NCBI GenBank assembly: GCA_963528595.1
Contig: CAURUU010000003.1
Coordinates: 11,042-75,041 of the forward strand
Direction of reading: 5' to 3'
Source: an uncultured Candidatus Saccharibacteria bacterium
GTDB lineage: Bacteria > Patescibacteriota > Saccharimonadia > Saccharimonadales > Saccharimonadaceae
Length of the DNA stretch: 64,000 bases
Below are positions 36,270 through 58,453 of this stretch, one piece after another. The notes beneath the pieces are model-generated. The model was not told the origin of the DNA, did no database searches, and worked only from the letters and a program-made list of their open reading frames with translations. Numbering within the stretch: position 1 is the first letter of the stretch; each line of letters opens with the position of its first letter. A program made the translations under genes and the position numbers.

Positions 36270-36344
36270 GGTTTCATTATATCATTTGCGGACTGTGAGA
36301 TTGGCTGGTTGGAAAAGGCTTACGGTATTCGATATACTAGAGGT

Positions 36345-50375: not shown

Positions 50376-52418
50376 ATGAAGCTGACGACTCCACTGGAAC
50401 ATATCAAAGGCGTCGGCCCCAAAACTGCCCAAGCACTGGCGGCGGCGGGTCTGGAGACGGTGGCGGACGCTCTGGATTTTTTGCCGCGGGCGTATGACGA
50501 TTATTCGGCGGCGGTCAATATCGCTGATCTTCAGCCGGGCAAGGTGACGGTGCGGGCGCGCTGCGAATCGATTTCCACGCGGATTGTTCGCCGAGGCTTA
50601 AGGATCACCACGGCGGTGCTGGCGGATGATTCCGGTAAAGTCAAGGCCGTCTGGTTTAATCAACCATACCGCGAATCGCAGCTGAGATCTGACGCTGAGT
50701 TTATGTTCTCTGGCCAATTTGGTATGCAGTATAACAGCTATCAGATCAGCAATCCGTCCGTCGAGCTCGCCAAACAAACAAATTCGTCCGACGCTCAGCC
50801 CACCTCAGGCATCCATCCCGTCTACAAATCCATCAAAAATCTTCGCCCAAAAACCGTGCAGGATTTGCTGAAAAATCTGCGACCTATCATGGAGTTTTTG
50901 CCTGAAACACTACCAGAAGACATTGTCCAGCGGCAAAAACTAGTCAGCCGCACCGAGGCCGTCAAGTTTCTCCATGCGCCCAACAATCATGAGGAAATTG
51001 CCCGCGGTCGTGAACGCTTGGCGTTCGAAGAGTTGTTTGAAATGATCTTGGCAGCGCAGTTGAATAAGCAAGAACAAACCAAGCTAACTGGCTGGTGCAT
51101 TCCGTTCAATCAGCCGGTCGTCAAGCAATTTGTTGAGCAACTGCCATTCCCCTTGACCAACGCGCAGCGCCGCGCTGCCTGGCAGATTTTGCAAGATTTG
51201 GAGTCCGAACATCCGATGAATCGCTTGCTGCAGGGTGATGTCGGCTCGGGCAAAACGGTGGTCGCCGGGCTGGTAGCGGCGGAAGTGGCGCAGGCTGGTT
51301 TCCAGACAGCCATCATGGCGCCGACCGAGATTTTGGCGGCTCAGCACGCCAAAACGCTGGATGAACTGTTATCGCCGTTCGGCGTGTCAGTGGCGCTGCT
51401 AACGGGACATGTCAAGGGCGCTCAGCGGCGGCAACTGCTGGATAACTTGGCAAATGGTAACATCAACGTGGTGGTCGGTACGCACGCGCTGATTCAGGAA
51501 AAAGTTGCGTACCATAAGCTCGGTTTTGTGGTGATCGACGAGCAGCATCGGTTCGGCGTCAAGCAGCGGCAGGCGTTGCTGCAAAAGGCAGATTACATGC
51601 CGCATCTGCTCAGCATGACCGCCACGCCGATTCCGCGGAGCTTGGCTCTGACGTTGTACGGTGAACTGGACATCTCGATTTTGGACGAGCTACCAGCTGG
51701 GCGCCAGCCGATTGAAACGAAAATTTGGTCGCCAGCCTCAGCGCCGAAGCTCTATGAAACCATCGACCATGAACTAGCCCAGGGCCGCCAAGCCTACGTC
51801 ATTTGCCCATTGATCGACGACAATCCTGACAATGACAAGAAGTCGGTCGAGGCGGAATATCACAAATTGGCAAAAACAATGTTTCGTCATCGCCGCGTCG
51901 GATTGTTACACGGTAAACTGCCGCCGGAGGAAAAAGCCGCGGTCATGCAACAATTTGCCGACGGTGAGCTTGACATACTGGTGAGCACCACGGTGGTGGA
52001 AGTTGGCGTCAATGTGCCGAACGCTACGGTCATGCTCATCGAAAATGCCGATCATTTTGGGCTCAGCCAGCTCCATCAGCTGCGTGGGCGGGTTGGACGT
52101 GGTGAGCACCAGAGCTTTTGTCATTTGATGATGTCGGGTCATGATAAGCCGAGCCAGCGCCTAAGGGAAATTGAGAAAGCTCAAGACGGCTTCTACTTGG
52201 CGGAAGTTGATTTGAAACTACGCGGCCCTGGTGAGATTTACGGACGAGCGCAGCATGGCGCGCTGAACCTAAAAATTGCCTCGCTGAGCGACACGCCACT
52301 GATTGCCCGTGCGCAAACGGAGGCCGAGCGCTTTGTCAAAGAGGGGCAGGATTTGCTACAATATAACCATCTGGCGCGTGCCGTCAGTCGCTATCAGCGA
52401 TTAACCATTTTGAATTAA
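50376..52418 (+). CDS. recG: ATP-dependent DNA helicase RecG
   Basis: Wedge domain, GDVGSGKT, DEQHRFG. Confidence 0.95.
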   Translation: MKLTTPLEHIKGVGPKTAQALAAAGLETVADALDFLPRAYDDYSAAVNIADLQPGKVTVRARCESISTRIVRRGLRITTAVLADDSGKVKAVWFNQPYRESQLRSDAEFMFSGQFGMQYNSYQISNPSVELAKQTNSSDAQPTSGIHPVYKSIKNLRPKTVQDLLKNLRPIMEFLPETLPEDIVQRQKLVSRTEAVKFLHAPNNHEEIARGRERLAFEELFEMILAAQLNKQEQTKLTGWCIPFNQPVVKQFVEQLPFPLTNAQRRAAWQILQDLESEHPMNRLLQGDVGSGKTVVAGLVAAEVAQAGFQTAIMAPTEILAAQHAKTLDELLSPFGVSVALLTGHVKGAQRRQLLDNLANGNINVVVGTHALIQEKVAYHKLGFVVIDEQHRFGVKQRQALLQKADYMPHLLSMTATPIPRSLALTLYGELDISILDELPAGRQPIETKIWSPASAPKLYETIDHELAQGRQAYVICPLIDDNPDNDKKSVEAEYHKLAKTMFRHRRVGLLHGKLPPEEKAAVMQQFADGELDILVSTTVVEVGVNVPNATVMLIENADHFGLSQLHQLRGRVGRGEHQSFCHLMMSGHDKPSQRLREIEKAQDGFYLAEVDLKLRGPGEIYGRAQHGALNLKIASLSDTPLIARAQTEAERFVKEGQDLLQYNHLARAVSRYQRLTILN

Positions 52419-52419
52419 T

Positions 52420-53235
52420 ATGTATGCAGGAACAACAATTAGAGATGGCTCTGGCCGATTTATCGGTGTTCATCAAAAGATAGATCGAGTGGCCAGGCGG
52501 CATCTGACGCCAATGCTGCCTGATTGGTGTGAGTTTCCTGATATCAAAGATATTCTGCATTTTGAAGGCAAAAACGGCCCTGACGGCGTCAAGCGCAAAA
52601 GTCCAGCCGTTGACGAGCCGTGGCACTTCATCAATCCAGACGATCCGAATGACACGGCGCTTTTGGAGATGATTGACCAACATATCGATAATCTAGCGAA
52701 GGCGTTGCAGAAAAATAATTCTGAACGAGCTGCCTTTGAAGCCGCGTGGATGGCGCACGCCATCACCGATGGTCTGACGCCGGCGCATCATTTTCCGCTG
52801 GAGCACGCCATGCAGGAGCTGCGCGGTGGCGAAGGTCTGGAGACACGAACCTCAATTCTTAAGAAAAATGTCATGAAGGGTGACACGGGGATTGAGCTCA
52901 TCAAAAACAACTGGAAGTTTTGGGGCGCCAAAGGTATGATGACCATGCATGTGGCGTTTGAAGCGGGCGTGGCGAGCGTGGTGGCCTATCCGCGCTTTAA
53001 GGACGCCGTGCCAAGCGAGGCTGAGATTTTACAGGTCAAGCAGCAAGGCTATCGGAAATATTATTTGGAGCAAGTTCACGCCGTGGCCGACCTAAAAATG
53101 TATGACAATTTTGGTAAAAACGGCTGGACGACTGATTTGGCGCGGCAAACCAACCATGAACTGATGCCAATTATCATCAAAGCCGTCATGCTGGGTTGGC
53201 TGACGTCGGTGTGGAAGCTTGAGGCCAAACGGTGA
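52420..53235 (+). CDS. hypothetical protein with zinc-dependent phospholipase C / S1-P1 nuclease-like HxxxDxxxPxH motif
   Basis: AWMAHAITDGLTPAHH. The gene sits tightly between recG and rsmD. Confidence 0.6.
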   Translation: MYAGTTIRDGSGRFIGVHQKIDRVARRHLTPMLPDWCEFPDIKDILHFEGKNGPDGVKRKSPAVDEPWHFINPDDPNDTALLEMIDQHIDNLAKALQKNNSERAAFEAAWMAHAITDGLTPAHHFPLEHAMQELRGGEGLETRTSILKKNVMKGDTGIELIKNNWKFWGAKGMMTMHVAFEAGVASVVAYPRFKDAVPSEAEILQVKQQGYRKYYLEQVHAVADLKMYDNFGKNGWTTDLARQTNHELMPIIIKAVMLGWLTSVWKLEAKR

Positions 53236-53771
53236 GAGTACGCATCATCGCTGGCGAATTTGGTGGACGATTTATCCAAACGCCGCCAGGCTCAACGACA
53301 CATCCCATGGGCGAACGGGTCCGTTCAGCAATGTTTAATTCACTGGGCGAAACAGTCCGCGGTGCGCGGGTTTTGGATGCTTTTGCCGGCTCTGGCGCCA
53401 TTGGCTTGGAGGCGCTCAGTCGCGGTGCCGAGTCAGCGGTTTTTGTGGAGCGAGACCGAGTTGCGCAGCGTGTGATCGCCGAAAACATAGCCAGTTTGGG
53501 CGTCGATGAACAATCTATTGTAATAAAAACAACGATATCAAATTGGTTGGAAAGCATGAGCGTAACAGAGAAGTTCGATATCATTTTTGCCGATCCGCCA
53601 TATCACAACCCGCAGTTTTCCACAGTTTCGCGACTAATGGGGCTTCTCAAACCAGGTGGATGTATGATATTATCACACCCAGGAATAGGTGAGGTGCCAG
53701 TTCAAAACGGAATTGTTGTGGTGGACAATCGTAGTTATGGGGAGGCGCACCTCACCAAGTTCCTACGATAA
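53232..53771 (+). CDS. rsmD: 16S rRNA (guanine966-N2)-methyltransferase
   Basis: Motifs seen: MRVRIIAGEFGGR, DAFAGSGA, DPPY. Confidence 0.85.
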   Translation: MRVRIIAGEFGGRFIQTPPGSTTHPMGERVRSAMFNSLGETVRGARVLDAFAGSGAIGLEALSRGAESAVFVERDRVAQRVIAENIASLGVDEQSIVIKTTISNWLESMSVTEKFDIIFADPPYHNPQFSTVSRLMGLLKPGGCMILSHPGIGEVPVQNGIVVVDNRSYGEAHLTKFLR

Positions 53772-53914
53772 CCATCATAGTTAGTCAGTAGTCCCGATGT
53801 ACGTCGAGGGCTTTTTGTTATGTCAGCGCAGAACACAGTATTGCAAAAGTAAACTCTATATGGTATAGATAGTTGCTAAGACATATGTGGAACCAAAAGA
53901 GGAGGAGTGAAAAT

Positions 53915-54127
53915 ATGCCACGTGCTAATCATGACCTAATGGAGCGAGAACTTACAGGGGCAACTGCTAGTAGTCCTGAGGATAGTGATATGAGAGCGCT
54001 TTATGACGCCATTTGTACGCAGGAAAATTTTGACAAAGAACAGGCACGAATTGACGATCTTAGGAAGTTTGGTCAGGAAGTTTTGGACAAGTTTGGTTAC
54101 GCGGAATATAGCGAAATAACCGTTTAG
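53915..54127 (+). CDS. small acidic hypothetical protein (70 aa)
   Basis: A strong AAGAGGAGG SD lies before ATG 53915. Confidence 0.5.
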   Translation: MPRANHDLMERELTGATASSPEDSDMRALYDAICTQENFDKEQARIDDLRKFGQEVLDKFGYAEYSEITV

Positions 54128-54189
54128 CCTTTGCTGATTTGCAGGACAAATAAAAAGAGCCTCGCCGGGAAGCTCGTGATGATACTTTT

Positions 54190-54264
54190 TGGTGCGGATG
54201 GGGAGAGTCGAACTCCCGTCTCAACCTTGGGAAGGTCACATAATAGCCGTTATACGACACCCGC
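54190..54264 (-). tRNA. tRNA-Gly (anticodon CCC), CCA encoded
   Basis: Folded by hand. Acceptor GCGGGTG/CATCCGC, anticodon loop TTCCCAA, T arm GGGAG-TTCGACT-CTCCC. Confidence 0.9.
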
Positions 54265-54330
54265 GTTCTTAAAAGTATATCACCCTTGCCAGATGGCGAC
54301 AACTTTAGTACAATGAAGTAGCAAGTTTGT

Positions 54331-54406
54331 GGCTCTTTAGCTCAGTTGGTAGAGCAGAGGCCTGAAGAGCCTTGTGTCCCCAGTTCAAGTCTGGGAGGAG
54401 CCACCA
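54331..54406 (+). tRNA. tRNA-Phe (anticodon GAA), CCA encoded
   Basis: GGCTCTTTAGCTCAGTTGGTAGAGC..., anticodon loop CTGAAGA, T arm CCCAG-TTCAAGT-CTGGG. A TTGCCA-17-TACAAT promoter lies upstream. Confidence 0.95.
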
Positions 54407-54455
54407 AATATTGCATTTTATTCGCGGCTTTGTTACAATAAATCGTGAATTACAT

Positions 54456-54531
54456 GCGGGTTTAGCTCAGTTGTTAGAGCGCTTCCTTGCCATGGAAGAG
54501 GCCAGGAGTTAGAGTCTCCTTACCCGCACCA
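54456..54531 (+). tRNA. tRNA-Gly (anticodon GCC), CCA encoded, with an unusual D-loop/T-loop
   Basis: Anticodon loop TTGCCAT. The D loop is AGTTGTTA (U19) and the T loop is TTAGAGT (A56). Confidence 0.85.
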
Positions 54532-54541
54532 ATTTTGAATG

Positions 54542-54565
54542 TCGAGCTTTTTAGCTCGATTTTTA
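54542..54565 (+). terminator. intrinsic terminator after the tRNA pair
   Basis: TCGAGCT-TTTT-AGCTCGA forms a perfect 7-bp stem followed by TTTTT. Confidence 0.8.
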
Positions 54566-56850
54566 AATAATTCTATAGTAAATTAGTTCGTAGTGTGGCC
54601 ATTTATTTGGTAAATATTATCTATTAGCTTTTACAAATTTTATTCTGACTGTAAGACTCTAGCGCTTGGTCCATACGCTTTAATTGTACCCATGGGTCAT
54701 TGTTAAACATTACGCATCGTATATCACCTGAAGTATCTGCGCCCAATGCCAACCATACTTCAGCTCGAGCCCTATACTTATTCATAGTAGCTATTATTTG
54801 CAATTTAGAAATAATATCTTGCTCTGAGTGACCGCTCATATAGGTTATACCTCCCCAGGGCTGTCCATTATTTGTGATCTGCAATGAAAAATCATGTAAT
54901 TTGCCCTTATCTTTCTTGACTTGAGAGTTAACCATATTCATATATTTCATTATATTGTCTACGGTCTCCTGAGGTATCGTCATCAGAAAGAAAACGATAT
55001 CAGTTGCTGAAGGATCATTTAGTTGTTTGATGGTGTTGACAAGTTTCTTGAAGTCCTTGTTGTGCCAAGGATTAAATAAAGCATCTTCCTTTTTAGGTTT
55101 TGGTGCACCCATCTTCTTGTGATAGTAGTCTGCATCAATAATCTGACCAAAAGATTGGTCTAATACAAGCATATTAGAATCTCTAGGCATAAATAGCCCG
55201 TACCGCAGATGATATGCAAGGTGGATGATCTCATTTGATGATATTATACCTTCATGATTTTCAATACGCTGTTTAATGTAAAAAGCAAATTCATAAGGGT
55301 CTTTGAAATATTCAGCCATTAGGTCGATATCAAACAGACTTAGCTGTATCGGAGGTAATTGATCTATATCCACCAGGAGCGCGCGCATCTGATCCATTAC
55401 CGCTGGGTACGGCTCATTTGACACACATAGTATGTACGCGTGCTTTATGTCTTTTGGCAGTGTAAGCTGACTGCCTGATTTATCGATTAAATTATAAGAT
55501 TCATTGCCTAAAAGTGTATTACGGACTTTTATGCCCTGTCTATATGGATCGATAACTGCCTTTTGAAAGTCAGATTTAATAGCGTCAATATCACCGTTGA
55601 GTGCAGCAGCTGTCATTTTTTTGCTTTTGTTCTGGGCAATAATGGCTGTGTTACCAATAATTCCCATTACATCAATGTCGGTTATAGTGTTCTTCCCTTT
55701 AACAATCTTGACAGCTTTGTAAGTATTTGCCCTACCAAAGATACTTTTAAAATAGGCATAGGTTATATCCTCAGTTACCTCGCCAATATGCTTGTTGGCA
55801 GTGTTGGTGTATTGCTTATCTTGGCGCATCCAATATAAAGGACTTTTATATATAGCTGATGCTAGTGCCATCGTGTTCGGGAAGAAGTAGGTGTCGTTCC
55901 CTAGATTGATGATCGGCTTATAAGTGAATATATTTTCATTGCCAGGTTCGCTAAATGTTTCTGGTTGGTCGCCAAACGAACAACTAAATAGGTCGAGAAA
56001 TGCCTGAATATCTTCTTTTGTAATACTTTTGTCTGCAGCTCGTATGGCTTTTACGATGAGGTCAAAAGAGAAAGCTATCTCATCAATTGCGCGTAATGAC
56101 TTTGATTGCTCGTCGGTAAGTATTGAATGGGCGAAATGTATACCATTGAACATGCTCTTCAGGGCGAAGAATATAGTTTTTGATTTTGCGATACTAAAAT
56201 TTGTATTATCCTTTATCCAGTCTTCATCTTGCGCGTATAGTTTTTGTGCTATTTCGAATGGTTGCAAATCATAAAACCCTATGTCACCGTAAAAGGTTGT
56301 TTCTATGATTATCTCTTTACTACTAAAGACTTCCCGAAATTCTCTCTCTTTCTCTTCGTCACTCATAGCCTCGATTTGTTCTGGTGTATGCCTCACTATA
56401 GCTTCGCTAAAATCGTACATATAAGTACTGTGAAGCTCATCAAGTAGTGACCTGGTGTATTTTATCGCCTCCTCAATTTGCTCTCCACTAATCTCATTAA
56501 AGCTAACAGTTTTGTTTTTAAGCATTAATCCCATGAGGAAGGCTACCTCGTTGTTGTGCAACCTCCTCCTCCAATCTATATTACCTACATCATGTATAGC
56601 TATAAAGAAGTCTCGTAAAATAATTTCTGCAAAGGCATGTATATACCCCCTTGTTGTTACGAGCAACTCTATGTCAGATATAATATCCTCTCGTGAGCGT
56701 TTTTCTGATATCTTTTTACTATTTTTCATAAGCTTATTATACTCGCAAGAACTGTCTGCACAATAATATGAGGGTATTGCCGAGGCAATTTTAAGCATAA
56801 GATAGCCTTAGTGCGTATTCTACGTTTCTGTTAAGTTCGAGTCTGGAAAA
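54566..56850. mobile_element. AT-rich genomic islet next to the tRNA cluster (no integrase visible)
   Basis: Hand-counted 60-nt lines inside the islet give 28%, 40% and 40% G+C. Flanking genes give 52% and 63%. The islet holds a single ORF, and its distal edge carries a 13-nt copy of the tRNA-Phe T-arm. Confidence 0.45.
54624..56729 (-). CDS. large orphan protein (701 aa from ATG 56729; 724 aa from ATG 56798) with a central PD-(D/E)xK-like nuclease motif
   Basis: An uninterrupted low-GC ORF. TATAAT at 56741-56736 lies 6 nt before ATG 56729. The motif reads GEVTEDITYAYF...TITDIDVMGIIGNTAIIAQNKSKK (E...D-x12-Q-x-K). Confidence 0.8.
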   Translation of the reverse strand: MKNSKKISEKRSREDIISDIELLVTTRGYIHAFAEIILRDFFIAIHDVGNIDWRRRLHNNEVAFLMGLMLKNKTVSFNEISGEQIEEAIKYTRSLLDELHSTYMYDFSEAIVRHTPEQIEAMSDEEKEREFREVFSSKEIIIETTFYGDIGFYDLQPFEIAQKLYAQDEDWIKDNTNFSIAKSKTIFFALKSMFNGIHFAHSILTDEQSKSLRAIDEIAFSFDLIVKAIRAADKSITKEDIQAFLDLFSCSFGDQPETFSEPGNENIFTYKPIINLGNDTYFFPNTMALASAIYKSPLYWMRQDKQYTNTANKHIGEVTEDITYAYFKSIFGRANTYKAVKIVKGKNTITDIDVMGIIGNTAIIAQNKSKKMTAAALNGDIDAIKSDFQKAVIDPYRQGIKVRNTLLGNESYNLIDKSGSQLTLPKDIKHAYILCVSNEPYPAVMDQMRALLVDIDQLPPIQLSLFDIDLMAEYFKDPYEFAFYIKQRIENHEGIISSNEIIHLAYHLRYGLFMPRDSNMLVLDQSFGQIIDADYYHKKMGAPKPKKEDALFNPWHNKDFKKLVNTIKQLNDPSATDIVFFLMTIPQETVDNIMKYMNMVNSQVKKDKGKLHDFSLQITNNGQPWGGITYMSGHSEQDIISKLQIIATMNKYRARAEVWLALGADTSGDIRCVMFNNDPWVQLKRMDQALESYSQNKICKS

Positions 56851-56878
56851 AATGTGCCATCTCGCTTATACTTAAAAC

Positions 56879-58453
56879 ATGACTAAAGCGTGGCGTGATG
56901 TTGGATCGTTGTATCAGATTTATCCGCGAAGTTTTCGAGACTTGAACGGTGATGGGGTCGGAGACTTGAACGGCATTACGCTCAAGATGGACTATCTTAG
57001 TGATCTCGGCGTTGACGCCATTTGGATTTCGCCGTTTTTCACGTCGCCCATGACTGACTTTGGCTATGACGTGGCGGATTATCAAAATGTTGATCCGGTA
57101 TTTGGCGGTCTGGATGATTTTCGTATGTTGTTGGATGAAGCCCACGCGCGCGACATCAAAGTGATGATTGACCTGGTGCCGTGCCACACGTCTGACCAGC
57201 ATCCGTGGTTCGTTGAGTCGCGTTCTGACCGGGATAATCCCAAGCGGGATTGGTATGTGTGGCGAGACGGTAGTGACGGGCATGAGCCGAACAATTGGGT
57301 CAGTTTGGCGGGCGGCAGGTCATGGACGTTTGACGCTGATTCTGGTCAGTACTATTTGCACTCATTTTTGCCAACCCAACCAGACCTTAACTGGGGCAAT
57401 CCTGAGGTACGCTTGGCTATCAAAGATGTGGTGCGATTTTGGTTTGATATGGGTGTGGACGGCATACGCGTTGATGCCATCTGGGGGATTTCCAAAGATC
57501 CAGAACTGCGTGACGACTCGCCAAACCCTAATTTCTATGGCGATGCTGACAGCTACGGTGCCTATATTCATGACCATTGCAAGCACGGGCCGCATTTTGA
57601 AGCGTATTTGCACGAGCTGGCGAGTGTTTGCGATAAATATGAGGATAAACAAATGGTGTTTGAGTTCTACCCAGACGAGCGCCTTGGTGACATCTGGCGG
57701 CAATATCACGACGTCATCCACGTTCATCCGAAAGCCACGGCCTTTTTCATGGAACATCGGCAAAACGATTGGCACGGTGAACATACTGGCTGGAATATCA
57801 TGAACTATTTGGAGGCGACAGGGGAGAATATATCATTCTTCTGCCTTGGCAATCATGACCAACCACGTGTGACGTCTCGCTTAGGACTGCCGCGATCCCG
57901 TGCACTGCAGTTTCTCAATCTGTTGTGTCCGGGCGTCAGCGTGATGTACTATGGCGATGAGATTGGCATGGAAGACGTTGATTTGACGCAACATGATGTG
58001 CAAGATGGCTTTCATCGCTCGCTTCAAGACGACCGCAATCGTGCCCGTACGCCCATGCAGTGGAACAGCTCGCGCTATGCTGGGTTCGCCAATGTGCTGC
58101 CATGGCTGCCAGTGCATCCTAATCATAAACAGGTCAATGTCGCCAAAGAGACCAAAGACCCAAGCTCGCTGTTGTGGCTATGTCGGAAATTATTGGAGCT
58201 GCGACATGAACTGCCAATTTTACGCCACGGTACCATGGAGAAGCTTGACACTGGTAATGGCTTTGTCTTAGGGTTTCGTCGCCAACTTGACGGTCAGCAG
58301 CTGCAGATATATATCAACTTTGCGGATTCAGCACAAACAGTGTGGTTGTCAGAAACCGGCCGTGTGATCATCGGTACAAACCCAGACATTCGTGTAGATG
58401 GTAATATGTTACAGCTGCCTGGCTATGGCGGTGTATTGATTGACATAAAGTAG
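56879..58453 (+). CDS. GH13 alpha-glucosidase / oligo-1,6-glucosidase family
   Basis: Motifs seen: DLNGDGVGDL, DLVPCHTS, GIRVDAIW, EFYP, LGNHDQPR. TATACT at 56867-56872 lies 6 nt before the ATG. Confidence 0.9.
   Translation: MTKAWRDVGSLYQIYPRSFRDLNGDGVGDLNGITLKMDYLSDLGVDAIWISPFFTSPMTDFGYDVADYQNVDPVFGGLDDFRMLLDEAHARDIKVMIDLVPCHTSDQHPWFVESRSDRDNPKRDWYVWRDGSDGHEPNNWVSLAGGRSWTFDADSGQYYLHSFLPTQPDLNWGNPEVRLAIKDVVRFWFDMGVDGIRVDAIWGISKDPELRDDSPNPNFYGDADSYGAYIHDHCKHGPHFEAYLHELASVCDKYEDKQMVFEFYPDERLGDIWRQYHDVIHVHPKATAFFMEHRQNDWHGEHTGWNIMNYLEATGENISFFCLGNHDQPRVTSRLGLPRSRALQFLNLLCPGVSVMYYGDEIGMEDVDLTQHDVQDGFHRSLQDDRNRARTPMQWNSSRYAGFANVLPWLPVHPNHKQVNVAKETKDPSSLLWLCRKLLELRHELPILRHGTMEKLDTGNGFVLGFRRQLDGQQLQIYINFADSAQTVWLSETGRVIIGTNPDIRVDGNMLQLPGYGGVLIDIK

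Follow-up and report, generated by a model that had tools for sequence, protein, structure and literature searches.

Single-protein defence effectors with PD-(D/E)xK or NERD nuclease domains are already known, as are defence hotspots adjacent to tRNA genes. Upx, a single-protein anti-phage system of 1,272 residues, is organized into N-terminal, middle and C-terminal domains (NTD/MD/CTD; PDB 9wuf), carries its PD-(D/E)xK core (D1161, E1176, K1178) at the extreme C-terminus, and is triggered by the phage terminase or, according to another study, by gp16 (PMC13099982, PMC13601566). ZwsA is a stand-alone NERD RNA endonuclease directed against RNA phages, the RNA of which it cleaves directly (bioRxiv 10.64898/2026.04.06.716636), and Rugutis is a lactococcal single-gene anti-phage protein of 359 residues with a SEC-C motif (PMC11381338). 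In the candidate phyla radiation (CPR), including the Saccharibacteria, genomes are tiny, CRISPR is rare and phage resistance is poorly known (PMC6509639, PMC13578794). Here we analyze a 64,000-nucleotide stretch (the window) of an uncultured Candidatus Saccharibacteria genome (GenBank assembly GCA_963528595.1, contig CAURUU010000003.1, positions 11,042–75,041, forward strand), in which a low-GC islet of 2,326 bp (54532–56857; 37% as opposed to 50% G+C) carries a lone gene (54624–56729, minus strand) encoding a 701-residue protein of a NERD-type PD-(D/E)xK family.

We propose, with a probability of roughly 0.6, that this gene is an uncatalogued, horizontally acquired single-gene nuclease defence system residing in a defence hotspot. 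The proposal is made because the same slot in sister strains holds known anti-phage systems, and also because relatives elsewhere adjoin restriction-modification (RM), Gabija-like, ApeA and CBASS-type genes or sit on integrative elements. A sequence-only reading of the window had suggested a candidate single-gene defence or nuclease system at this position; the predicted fold and the comparison of the slot support that suggestion, and from them we infer catalysis and a defence activity. New with respect to the systems above are a family lying outside the searched defence catalogue and the curated libraries, with an invariant QxK motif, flanking domains of its own and an optional SEC-C tail, and a hotspot in a CPR genome.

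Predicted fold and putative active site of the islet protein

The AlphaFold2 model of the full protein, built with 26 homologues (pLDDT 83, pTM 0.84), comprises a mostly helical N-terminal domain (residues 24–335; 55794–56729, minus strand), which varies between close alleles, a nuclease core (residues ~336–500; 55299–55793, minus strand) delimited by the model, Foldseek, NERD matches and invariant alignment columns, and a C-terminal α/β domain (residues 501–724; 54627–55298, minus strand) delimited by the model and the alignment. Residue numbers follow the 724-residue version of the protein. The sequence-only reading had described helical regions on both sides of the motif, which holds for the N-terminal side, the C-terminal side being predicted as mixed α/β; neither Walker A nor Walker B motifs are found in the protein, as that reading had said.

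The predicted core has the order α-β-β-β-α-β (helix 328–354, strands 359–367, 370–381 and 384–391, helix 404–430, strand 453–460). E343 lies on the first helix, D376 on the second strand, and Q389 and K391 on the third, which are the usual places of the PD-(D/E)xK active-site residues; their codons fall within 55626–55772. Across 64 aligned sequences, some with identities as low as 24%, D376 and Q389 never vary, whereas E343 and K391 are conserved in 90% or more. The PD-(D/E)xK pattern with a glutamine variant, read earlier from the letters of this one protein, is thus a feature of its homologues, and QxK is the peculiarity that defines the family.

Pfam NERD is matched by 37 of the 64 family members at E ≤ 0.01 (best 1.8e-7), two inspected matches scoring 22.0 and 20.9 bits, with the gathering cut-off at 22.1. 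Other members match Card1/CARF-PDDEXK nuclease models, and matches of both kinds map onto residues 339–427 of the window protein. As the window protein itself lies under Pfam detection, its assignment to NERD is transitive, made through the family members and the fold. Foldseek comparison of the full model with the PDB placed Upx first (E 3.6e-5), followed by VC1899 (1xmx), Can2, Cas4 SSO0001 and MGME1. The center of the protein is accordingly modelled as a NERD-type PD-(D/E)xK fold, and structure prediction, the check named in the sequence-only reading, bears out its nuclease assignment. Searched directly against Pfam, PADLOC, NCBIfam and PDB sequences, the window protein gave chance-level matches alone (Hormone_recep, Csm2 at 5e-4, CotA and PspF).

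Like the islet protein, Upx is a single-gene, large, multidomain protein with a PD-(D/E)xK core that occurs in defence contexts, and 9wuf is the best PDB fold match of the full model (probability 1.0, 617 aligned columns, TMq 0.31). To see whether the likeness to Upx exceeds the core, residues 24–335 were modelled alone (AlphaFold2, pLDDT 74). Upx was the sole notable PDB match of this domain (probability 0.98, TMq 0.43, E 0.077), the next match having a probability of 0.07. In contrast to Upx, the islet protein has 701 residues, a central core, an extra C-terminal domain of ~220 residues and QxK, and the TM-scores lie below 0.5. A family profile searched against PDB sequences gave no match to 9wuf at E ≤ 10, and no Upx model was matched in a PADLOC scan of the 64 members. 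Membership of Upx was therefore rejected; with no sequence-level link and a different architecture, we regard Upx as a suggestive structural resemblance. Judging from the models, the islet protein possibly works like Upx and may be distantly related to it.

The spacing of the putative active-site residues is close to that of ZwsA, in which the catalytic E535, D567, E580 and K582 lie 32, 13 and 2 residues apart, the intervals between E343, D376, Q389 and K391 of the islet protein being 33, 13 and 2. ZwsA and other NERD proteins (PF08378) resemble the islet protein also in being stand-alone multidomain effectors, and PGAP labels some plasmid-borne members of the family 'NERD domain-containing protein'. 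ZwsA differs in having a glutamate where the islet protein has Q389, and in its VHS, DUF647 and S4 domains, none of which was found in the islet protein. The next-best fold matches are CARF nucleases of the Can2/Card1/VC1899 type (1xmx, 8q3z), and some family members match Card1_endonuc, CARF_PDDEXK and PD_DExK; Can2 and Card1, however, have a CARF sensor and an association with CRISPR or cyclic oligoadenylate, and the islet protein has neither. In the member P0121, the inspected PADLOC matches to CARF nucleases and Csx1 span the nuclease segment alone (residues 290–386).

Rugutis shares with the family its single-gene nature and the SEC-C motif, the SEC-C zinc motif (PF02810) being present at the C-terminus of 46 of the 64 members. 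In Rugutis, by contrast, the motif lies at the N-terminus and a nuclease domain has not been reported, and the window protein has no SEC-C: together with its Saccharibacteria clade it stops just where SEC-C would start, the motif having been lost in that clade.

The models make the N-terminal domain a candidate sensor or regulatory domain. In the mechanism that we propose, the fast-evolving N- and C-terminal domains would hold the nuclease in check and would either sense a cue from the invader (a nucleic-acid structure, or a protein of the phage or plasmid) or make direct contact with the target. Cleavage of nucleic acid, be it DNA or RNA, by the metal-dependent core would follow and would stop the invader, by direct interference, or the infected cell, by abortive infection. 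The invariant QxK and the Upx-like helical domain offer concrete mutational and structural hypotheses.

A strain-variable defence hotspot beside tRNA-Gly(GCC)

The islet lies between tRNA-Gly(GCC) (54456–54531, plus strand) and the promoter of an amylase-family gene (56858–56878, plus strand; CATCTCGCTTATACT, N6, ATG 56879). This tRNA belongs to a cluster of three (ARAGORN and Rfam), preceded by tRNA-Gly(CCC) (54190–54264, minus strand) and tRNA-Phe(GAA) (54331–54406, plus strand), and a terminator-like hairpin with a T run (54541–54570, hairpin 54541–54560, plus strand) lies within the islet, where it separates the tRNA from the 3′ end of the gene that converges on it; the three tRNAs and the terminator are as the sequence-only reading had placed them. 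Alignment with differently occupied and empty sites defines both edges. On the left, alignments to five relatives (L028, L031, L033, L038 and L039) stop exactly past the 3′ CCA end of the tRNA (54531), and on the right, similarity to L028 and to the empty sites restarts at 56858, within the amylase promoter, which is conserved. An islet had been called at 54566–56878; the islet stands, and its limits move to 54532–56857.

A G+C content (GC) of 37.4% in the block as first delimited (54566–56878), against 50.1% in the remaining window, makes it the lowest-GC 2.3-kb stretch within the 64 kb, ~4.3 standard deviations (SD) under the mean, a composition foreign to its surroundings and in agreement with the low GC that had been counted by hand. 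In the GC profile, values of ~0.50 drop to 0.36–0.40 across roughly 54500–56900. At third codon positions the GC of the islet gene (GC3) is 0.378, the lowest among the 42 open reading frames (ORFs) with 200 or more codons (mean 0.533, SD 0.064). The block holds one ORF (54624–56798, minus strand, 724 residues), leaving no space for a second gene, which confirms the single gene of 701–724 residues reported earlier; an Rfam scan found no RNA inside the islet.

Close relatives were picked by the flanking genes recG, orf271, rsmD, the amylase-family gene and orf514, and the identities given below are those of the amylase gene to that of the window. The window carries allele A of the islet gene, and L005 and L006 (94.5–94.8%) carry allele B, 82% identical to A. 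The slot of L030 (95.2%) holds a Lamassu system (LmuA 5.4e-54, LmuB 3.2e-126) and that of L029 (96.4%) a retron-type reverse transcriptase (RVT_1 4.9e-20, PADLOC RT_VI 2.6e-49), whereas 3.09 kb with two unknown genes (500 and 523 residues) are present in L028 (96.6%). Among more distant relatives, L031 and L038 (66–70%; 78 bp and 125 bp) have an empty slot, L033 (66%; 4.3 kb) has a large serine recombinase abutting the tRNA and a 765-residue membrane protein, and L039, L035 and L040 (64–66%; 3.0 kb in L039) have a DUF4238 gene set. The measured cargo regions (window, L028, L033 and L039) have a GC of 0.35–0.42, against ~0.50 in the flanks. The cargo of L029 and L030 has just the final ~38 bp, the amylase promoter, in common with the cargo of L028, L033 and L039, and nothing in common with the window islet. 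The comparison with related strains named in the sequence-only reading thus shows that conservation of the gene at this site, with host-like composition, is not universal, and the slot separating tRNA-Gly(GCC) from the amylase gene is a strain-variable defence hotspot, a compact slot in a tiny CPR genome.

Precise conserved boundaries, mutually exclusive low-GC cargo, the presence of known systems, the existence of empty sites and one occupant with a recombinase are features shared with tRNA-adjacent hotspots of other bacteria. The present slot differs in belonging to a CPR/Saccharibacteria genome of roughly the 1-Mb class and in that most occupants have no integrase or att repeats, for which reason we propose that homologous recombination in the conserved flanks may be the route of exchange. 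An integrase-mediated, tRNA-integrated island was considered for the window and is unsupported, the islet having no recombinase and its boundary no repeats duplicating the tRNA 3′ end. An RM pair was likewise rejected: there is no adjacent methyltransferase, and the nearby rsmD is a conserved housekeeping gene that is present at empty sites too.

The islet gene has a dN/dS of ~0.12, against 0.02–0.05 in the flanking genes, which indicates that it is functional yet less constrained than its flanks. Variation between close alleles is concentrated in the N-terminal (24–270) and C-terminal (574–724) domains, the C-terminal domain being the most variable part and the core the most conserved. The alleles of L005 and L006 are 90% identical to those of L007 and L011, although the amylases of these hosts are just ~63% identical, and are 82% identical to the window allele although the amylases are ~95% identical. 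Likewise, dS against L007 is 0.88 for the gene and 1.9–2.8 for the flanks, and against L006 it is 0.80 for the gene and 0.18–0.60 for the flanks. The relationships of the alleles therefore contradict those of the hosts, indicating horizontal exchange. At every Saccharibacteria locus examined the gene has a GC of ~37%, even with flanks of ~50%, and it is host-like in composition only in low-GC hosts; this constancy points to a low-GC donor pool. Broken copies occur at L012:632–2738 (three frames), L010:11875 and L009 near 12040 (C-terminal shift or stop), explained either by decay of the gene or by faulty assembly of metagenome-assembled genomes.

Other occupants of the slot provide leads toward new systems. 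In L028 (3988–6932), the flanks of which are 96–99% identical, the two ORFs of the 38% GC cargo overlap, the 500-residue product having N-terminal membrane segments; neither product has a Pfam match or a meaningful PADLOC match, and the pair is a candidate unknown two-gene defence system. In L033 (574–4732, cargo 35% GC), the 551-residue serine recombinase (Resolvase, Recombinase, Zn_ribbon_recom) begins at the 3′ end of tRNA-Gly(GCC), and no family match was found for the 765-residue multi-pass membrane protein.

Family context and competing explanations

The protein had been called an orphan, a description that does not survive database searches. A word-indexed search retrieved 51 homologues, ranging from 99% identity down to 31% for Patescibacteria proteins named 'SEC-C domain-containing', and HMMER, run exhaustively against 1.84 billion cluster representatives, retrieved 1,316 at E ≤ 1e-3, of which 412 reached E ≤ 1e-30; among the 150 best listed representatives, most match over nearly the full length of ~700 residues. 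The names on the records are 'SEC-C metal-binding', 'NERD domain-containing' and 'nuclease-related domain-containing' protein. A scan of one genome per species located the family in Saccharibacteria/Nanosynbacter, Daviesbacteria, another Patescibacteria genome, Chloroflexota and Cloacimonadota, and tblastn located it on 32 plasmids, 22 of them conjugative, with Agrobacterium, Vibrio, Azonexus, Pontibacter and a cyanobacterium among the hosts. The family was not found by tblastn in 50,697 phage records and had no significant fold match in BFVD, and a phage origin was rejected on these grounds.

Many of the relatives have defence or mobility genes as neighbours. P0043 (L020) lies beside an MmeI-type RM gene, PIN_12 and Mrr; P0044 (L023) beside an OLD-TOPRIM ATPase with UvrD (Gabija-like), Hypoth_Ymh and a resolvase; the Cloacimonadota member (L017) has ApeA directly downstream; and the Chloroflexota member (L015) neighbours DUF4062, IS21 IstB and a Cap17-like gene. 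The Daviesbacteria member (L013) neighbours a serine recombinase, and P0041 and P0035 (L025, L026) lie in regions resembling integrative and conjugative elements (ICEs), with a serine recombinase and a type IV secretion system (T4SS) coupling protein. On plasmids, the Pontibacter member neighbours DUF4209, a PDDEXK nuclease and a recombinase, and the Agrobacterium pAt member an integrase, PLD with AAA, and Hxs. Other Saccharibacteria carry the gene at a locus with an arginine-deiminase operon and ORF6N on one side and an ABC/PadR/PspC cluster on the other, Replic_Relax and RelB/YafQ genes being close by. The family contexts examined have no recurrent partner gene, and the protein is therefore taken to act as a single-gene unit. 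In the ICE-like element of L026 (10284–15699), P0035 is followed by an operon encoding an AAA ATPase, a 605-residue unknown protein and an 843-residue HSP70-like protein, which may be another defence-type module.

Several results weigh against a nuclease defence system. The acidic residue of the third strand is replaced by Q389 in all 64 aligned members, and the invariant glutamine could signal altered or absent catalysis; the window protein itself has no match to Pfam NERD at E ≤ 1. No PADLOC model (PADLOC-DB v2.0.0) matches the body of the protein, and literature keyword searches returned no report of nuclease or anti-phage activity for any family member. Neither terminal direct or inverted repeats nor att-like repeats were found at the islet boundaries, and no recombinase gene was found among the ORFs of the islet or the window. 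P0049 (L018) has an ordinary-looking context of a tRNA cluster and housekeeping genes. Finally, the contigs with Lamassu and the retron-type reverse transcriptase (L030, L029) begin inside the cargo, the right-hand slot junction alone being verified.

Literature keyword searches likewise returned no report of this architecture as a defence system, nor of the hotspot. Among the curated NCBIfam models, none is full length or covers the protein body. Matches to PDC-S12 and E1-E2/E2 (PADLOC) and to SWIM_PBPRA1643 and YchJ-like (NCBIfam) are uninformative, spanning only the SEC-C tail of ~22 residues. A large family outside PADLOC-DB v2.0.0, without a curated full-length NCBIfam model, thus becomes a candidate single-gene immune nuclease.

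The mobile settings of many relatives raise the possibility that the gene serves mobile elements, in plasmid or ICE competition, exclusion or addiction, and that the chromosomal copy is a stranded remnant. Relatives in ICE-like regions that also encode serine recombinases, Replic_Relax and T4SS coupling proteins, relatives on conjugative plasmids and the serine-recombinase element occupying the L033 slot fit this explanation, which we nevertheless consider unlikely: the gene is alone, without element genes, in the window and in L005, L006, L007 and L011, is intact and under purifying selection, and alternates with bona fide host defence systems in one slot. Mobile elements moreover often carry defence genes, so the two explanations overlap. 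It is quite unlikely, in our judgement, that the core is catalytically dead through Q389 and that the protein is a nucleic-acid-binding sensor, regulator or scaffold. A glutamine in place of the canonical E/D throughout the alignment and a window protein under the Pfam NERD threshold would fit a dead core, but E343, D376 and K391 are kept invariant or nearly so, strict conservation of a metal site is typical of active enzymes, and the neighbourhoods show no conserved gene for a partner effector. Some restriction enzymes with Q/N-x-K, such as HinP1I and MspI, are active, and Q389 therefore need not mean inactivity; D374, an extra acid two positions before D376 that is E in some members, might compensate for the glutamine at 389.

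Even if the gene is a defence gene, its product could be a restriction-like enzyme, for example of Type IV and modification-dependent, that would itself recognize foreign nucleic acid, without a protein trigger or abortive infection. A solitary gene without an adjacent methyltransferase, a PD-(D/E)xK core as in Mrr and Type IV enzymes, and the direct cutting of phage RNA by the NERD protein ZwsA speak for such an enzyme; Pfam scans of the window protein and the 64 members, however, revealed no recognizable modification-reading or DNA-binding domain, and the N-terminal domain resembles the trigger-activated Upx, so we hold it to be decidedly unlikely. A housekeeping nuclease of DNA repair or recombination, AT-rich by chance, would also be under purifying selection and would occupy the same position in several relatives. 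That explanation is very improbable, given that the slot of close relatives has Lamassu, a retron-type reverse transcriptase or other cargo instead, that empty sites occur in more distant relatives, that other Saccharibacteria have the gene at other loci, that the family is patchy across phyla and present on plasmids, that the alleles are incongruent with the host backbone, and that the islet gene has the lowest GC3 in the window.

Extending the single-gene nuclease defence proposal beyond this locus is more speculative, and we advance the extension tentatively, as a possibility that is less likely than not. The NERD/QxK family of ~700-residue proteins, which counts at least 1,300 clusters, spans many phyla and also occurs on conjugative plasmids, would represent a widespread uncatalogued single-protein immune system, a 'short Upx-like' sensor-nuclease of an architecture distantly related to Upx and triggered by a conserved phage protein, and the slot would be a Saccharibacteria hotspot in which Lamassu, retrons and this nuclease are swapped by recombination.

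Promoter layout and other features of the locus

The coding strand of the islet gene reads TATAAT, AAGCTT, ATG 56729, the −10-like hexamer (56736–56741, minus strand) lying 6 nt 5′ of the start codon, in a leaderless-type promoter. The start at ATG 56729 (701 residues) is favoured by the N-termini of homologues, the in-frame ATG 56798 giving 724 residues. The neighbouring amylase gene has a like layout (TATACT-N6-ATG). Near the 5′ ends of long ORFs in the window, TANNNT occurs 5–8 nt before a start codon in 20 of 50 cases, against 3.4% of internal ATGs, and most of these hexamers are near TATAAT, at 6–7 nt. Examples with TATAAT-like hexamers at 6–7 nt spacing, which would not fit a Shine-Dalgarno sequence, are the starts near 36281 (minus strand), 60061 (plus strand), 3567 (plus strand), 27652 (minus strand) and 56879 (plus strand). 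These data suggest that leaderless transcripts are widespread in this genome. Since many gene starts of the window share the layout, that of the islet gene is regarded as genome-typical and leaderless in type. The TATAAT-N6-ATG arrangement noticed in the sequence-only reading is therefore correct, whereas its view that the gene had acquired host promoter architecture was overstated; the donors of the islet gene were probably related Patescibacteria, so that the layout need not have been gained after transfer.

The terminator-like hairpin is kept in the alignment with L006. Its stem at 54550–54565 (TTTAGCTCGATTTTTA) shares 81% identity with the 5′ D-arm region of the neighbouring tRNA-Gly(GCC) (TTTAGCTCAGTTGTTA), a likeness that is probably due to chance but could be a remnant of a tRNA-derived site. 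A second variable interval exists within the tRNA cluster, where ~1.3 kb lie between tRNA-Gly(CCC) and tRNA-Phe in L038 (3503–4841) and L039 (2080–3414); the window equivalent is a 66-bp spacer (54265–54330), and the L039 insert encodes a 397-residue GH16-family protein. In L031, L033 and L038–L041 (amylase identity 62–70%), rsmD, orf271 and recG come after the amylase gene and lie on the opposite strand. Compared with window positions 50376–58453, the segment made up of tRNAs, slot and amylase is thus inverted or rearranged with respect to the recG block. A 150-residue ORF at 56831–57283 (minus strand), which overlaps the beginning of the amylase-family gene in antisense and has equivalents in L028 and L029, is most likely a non-coding shadow ORF of the conserved gene.

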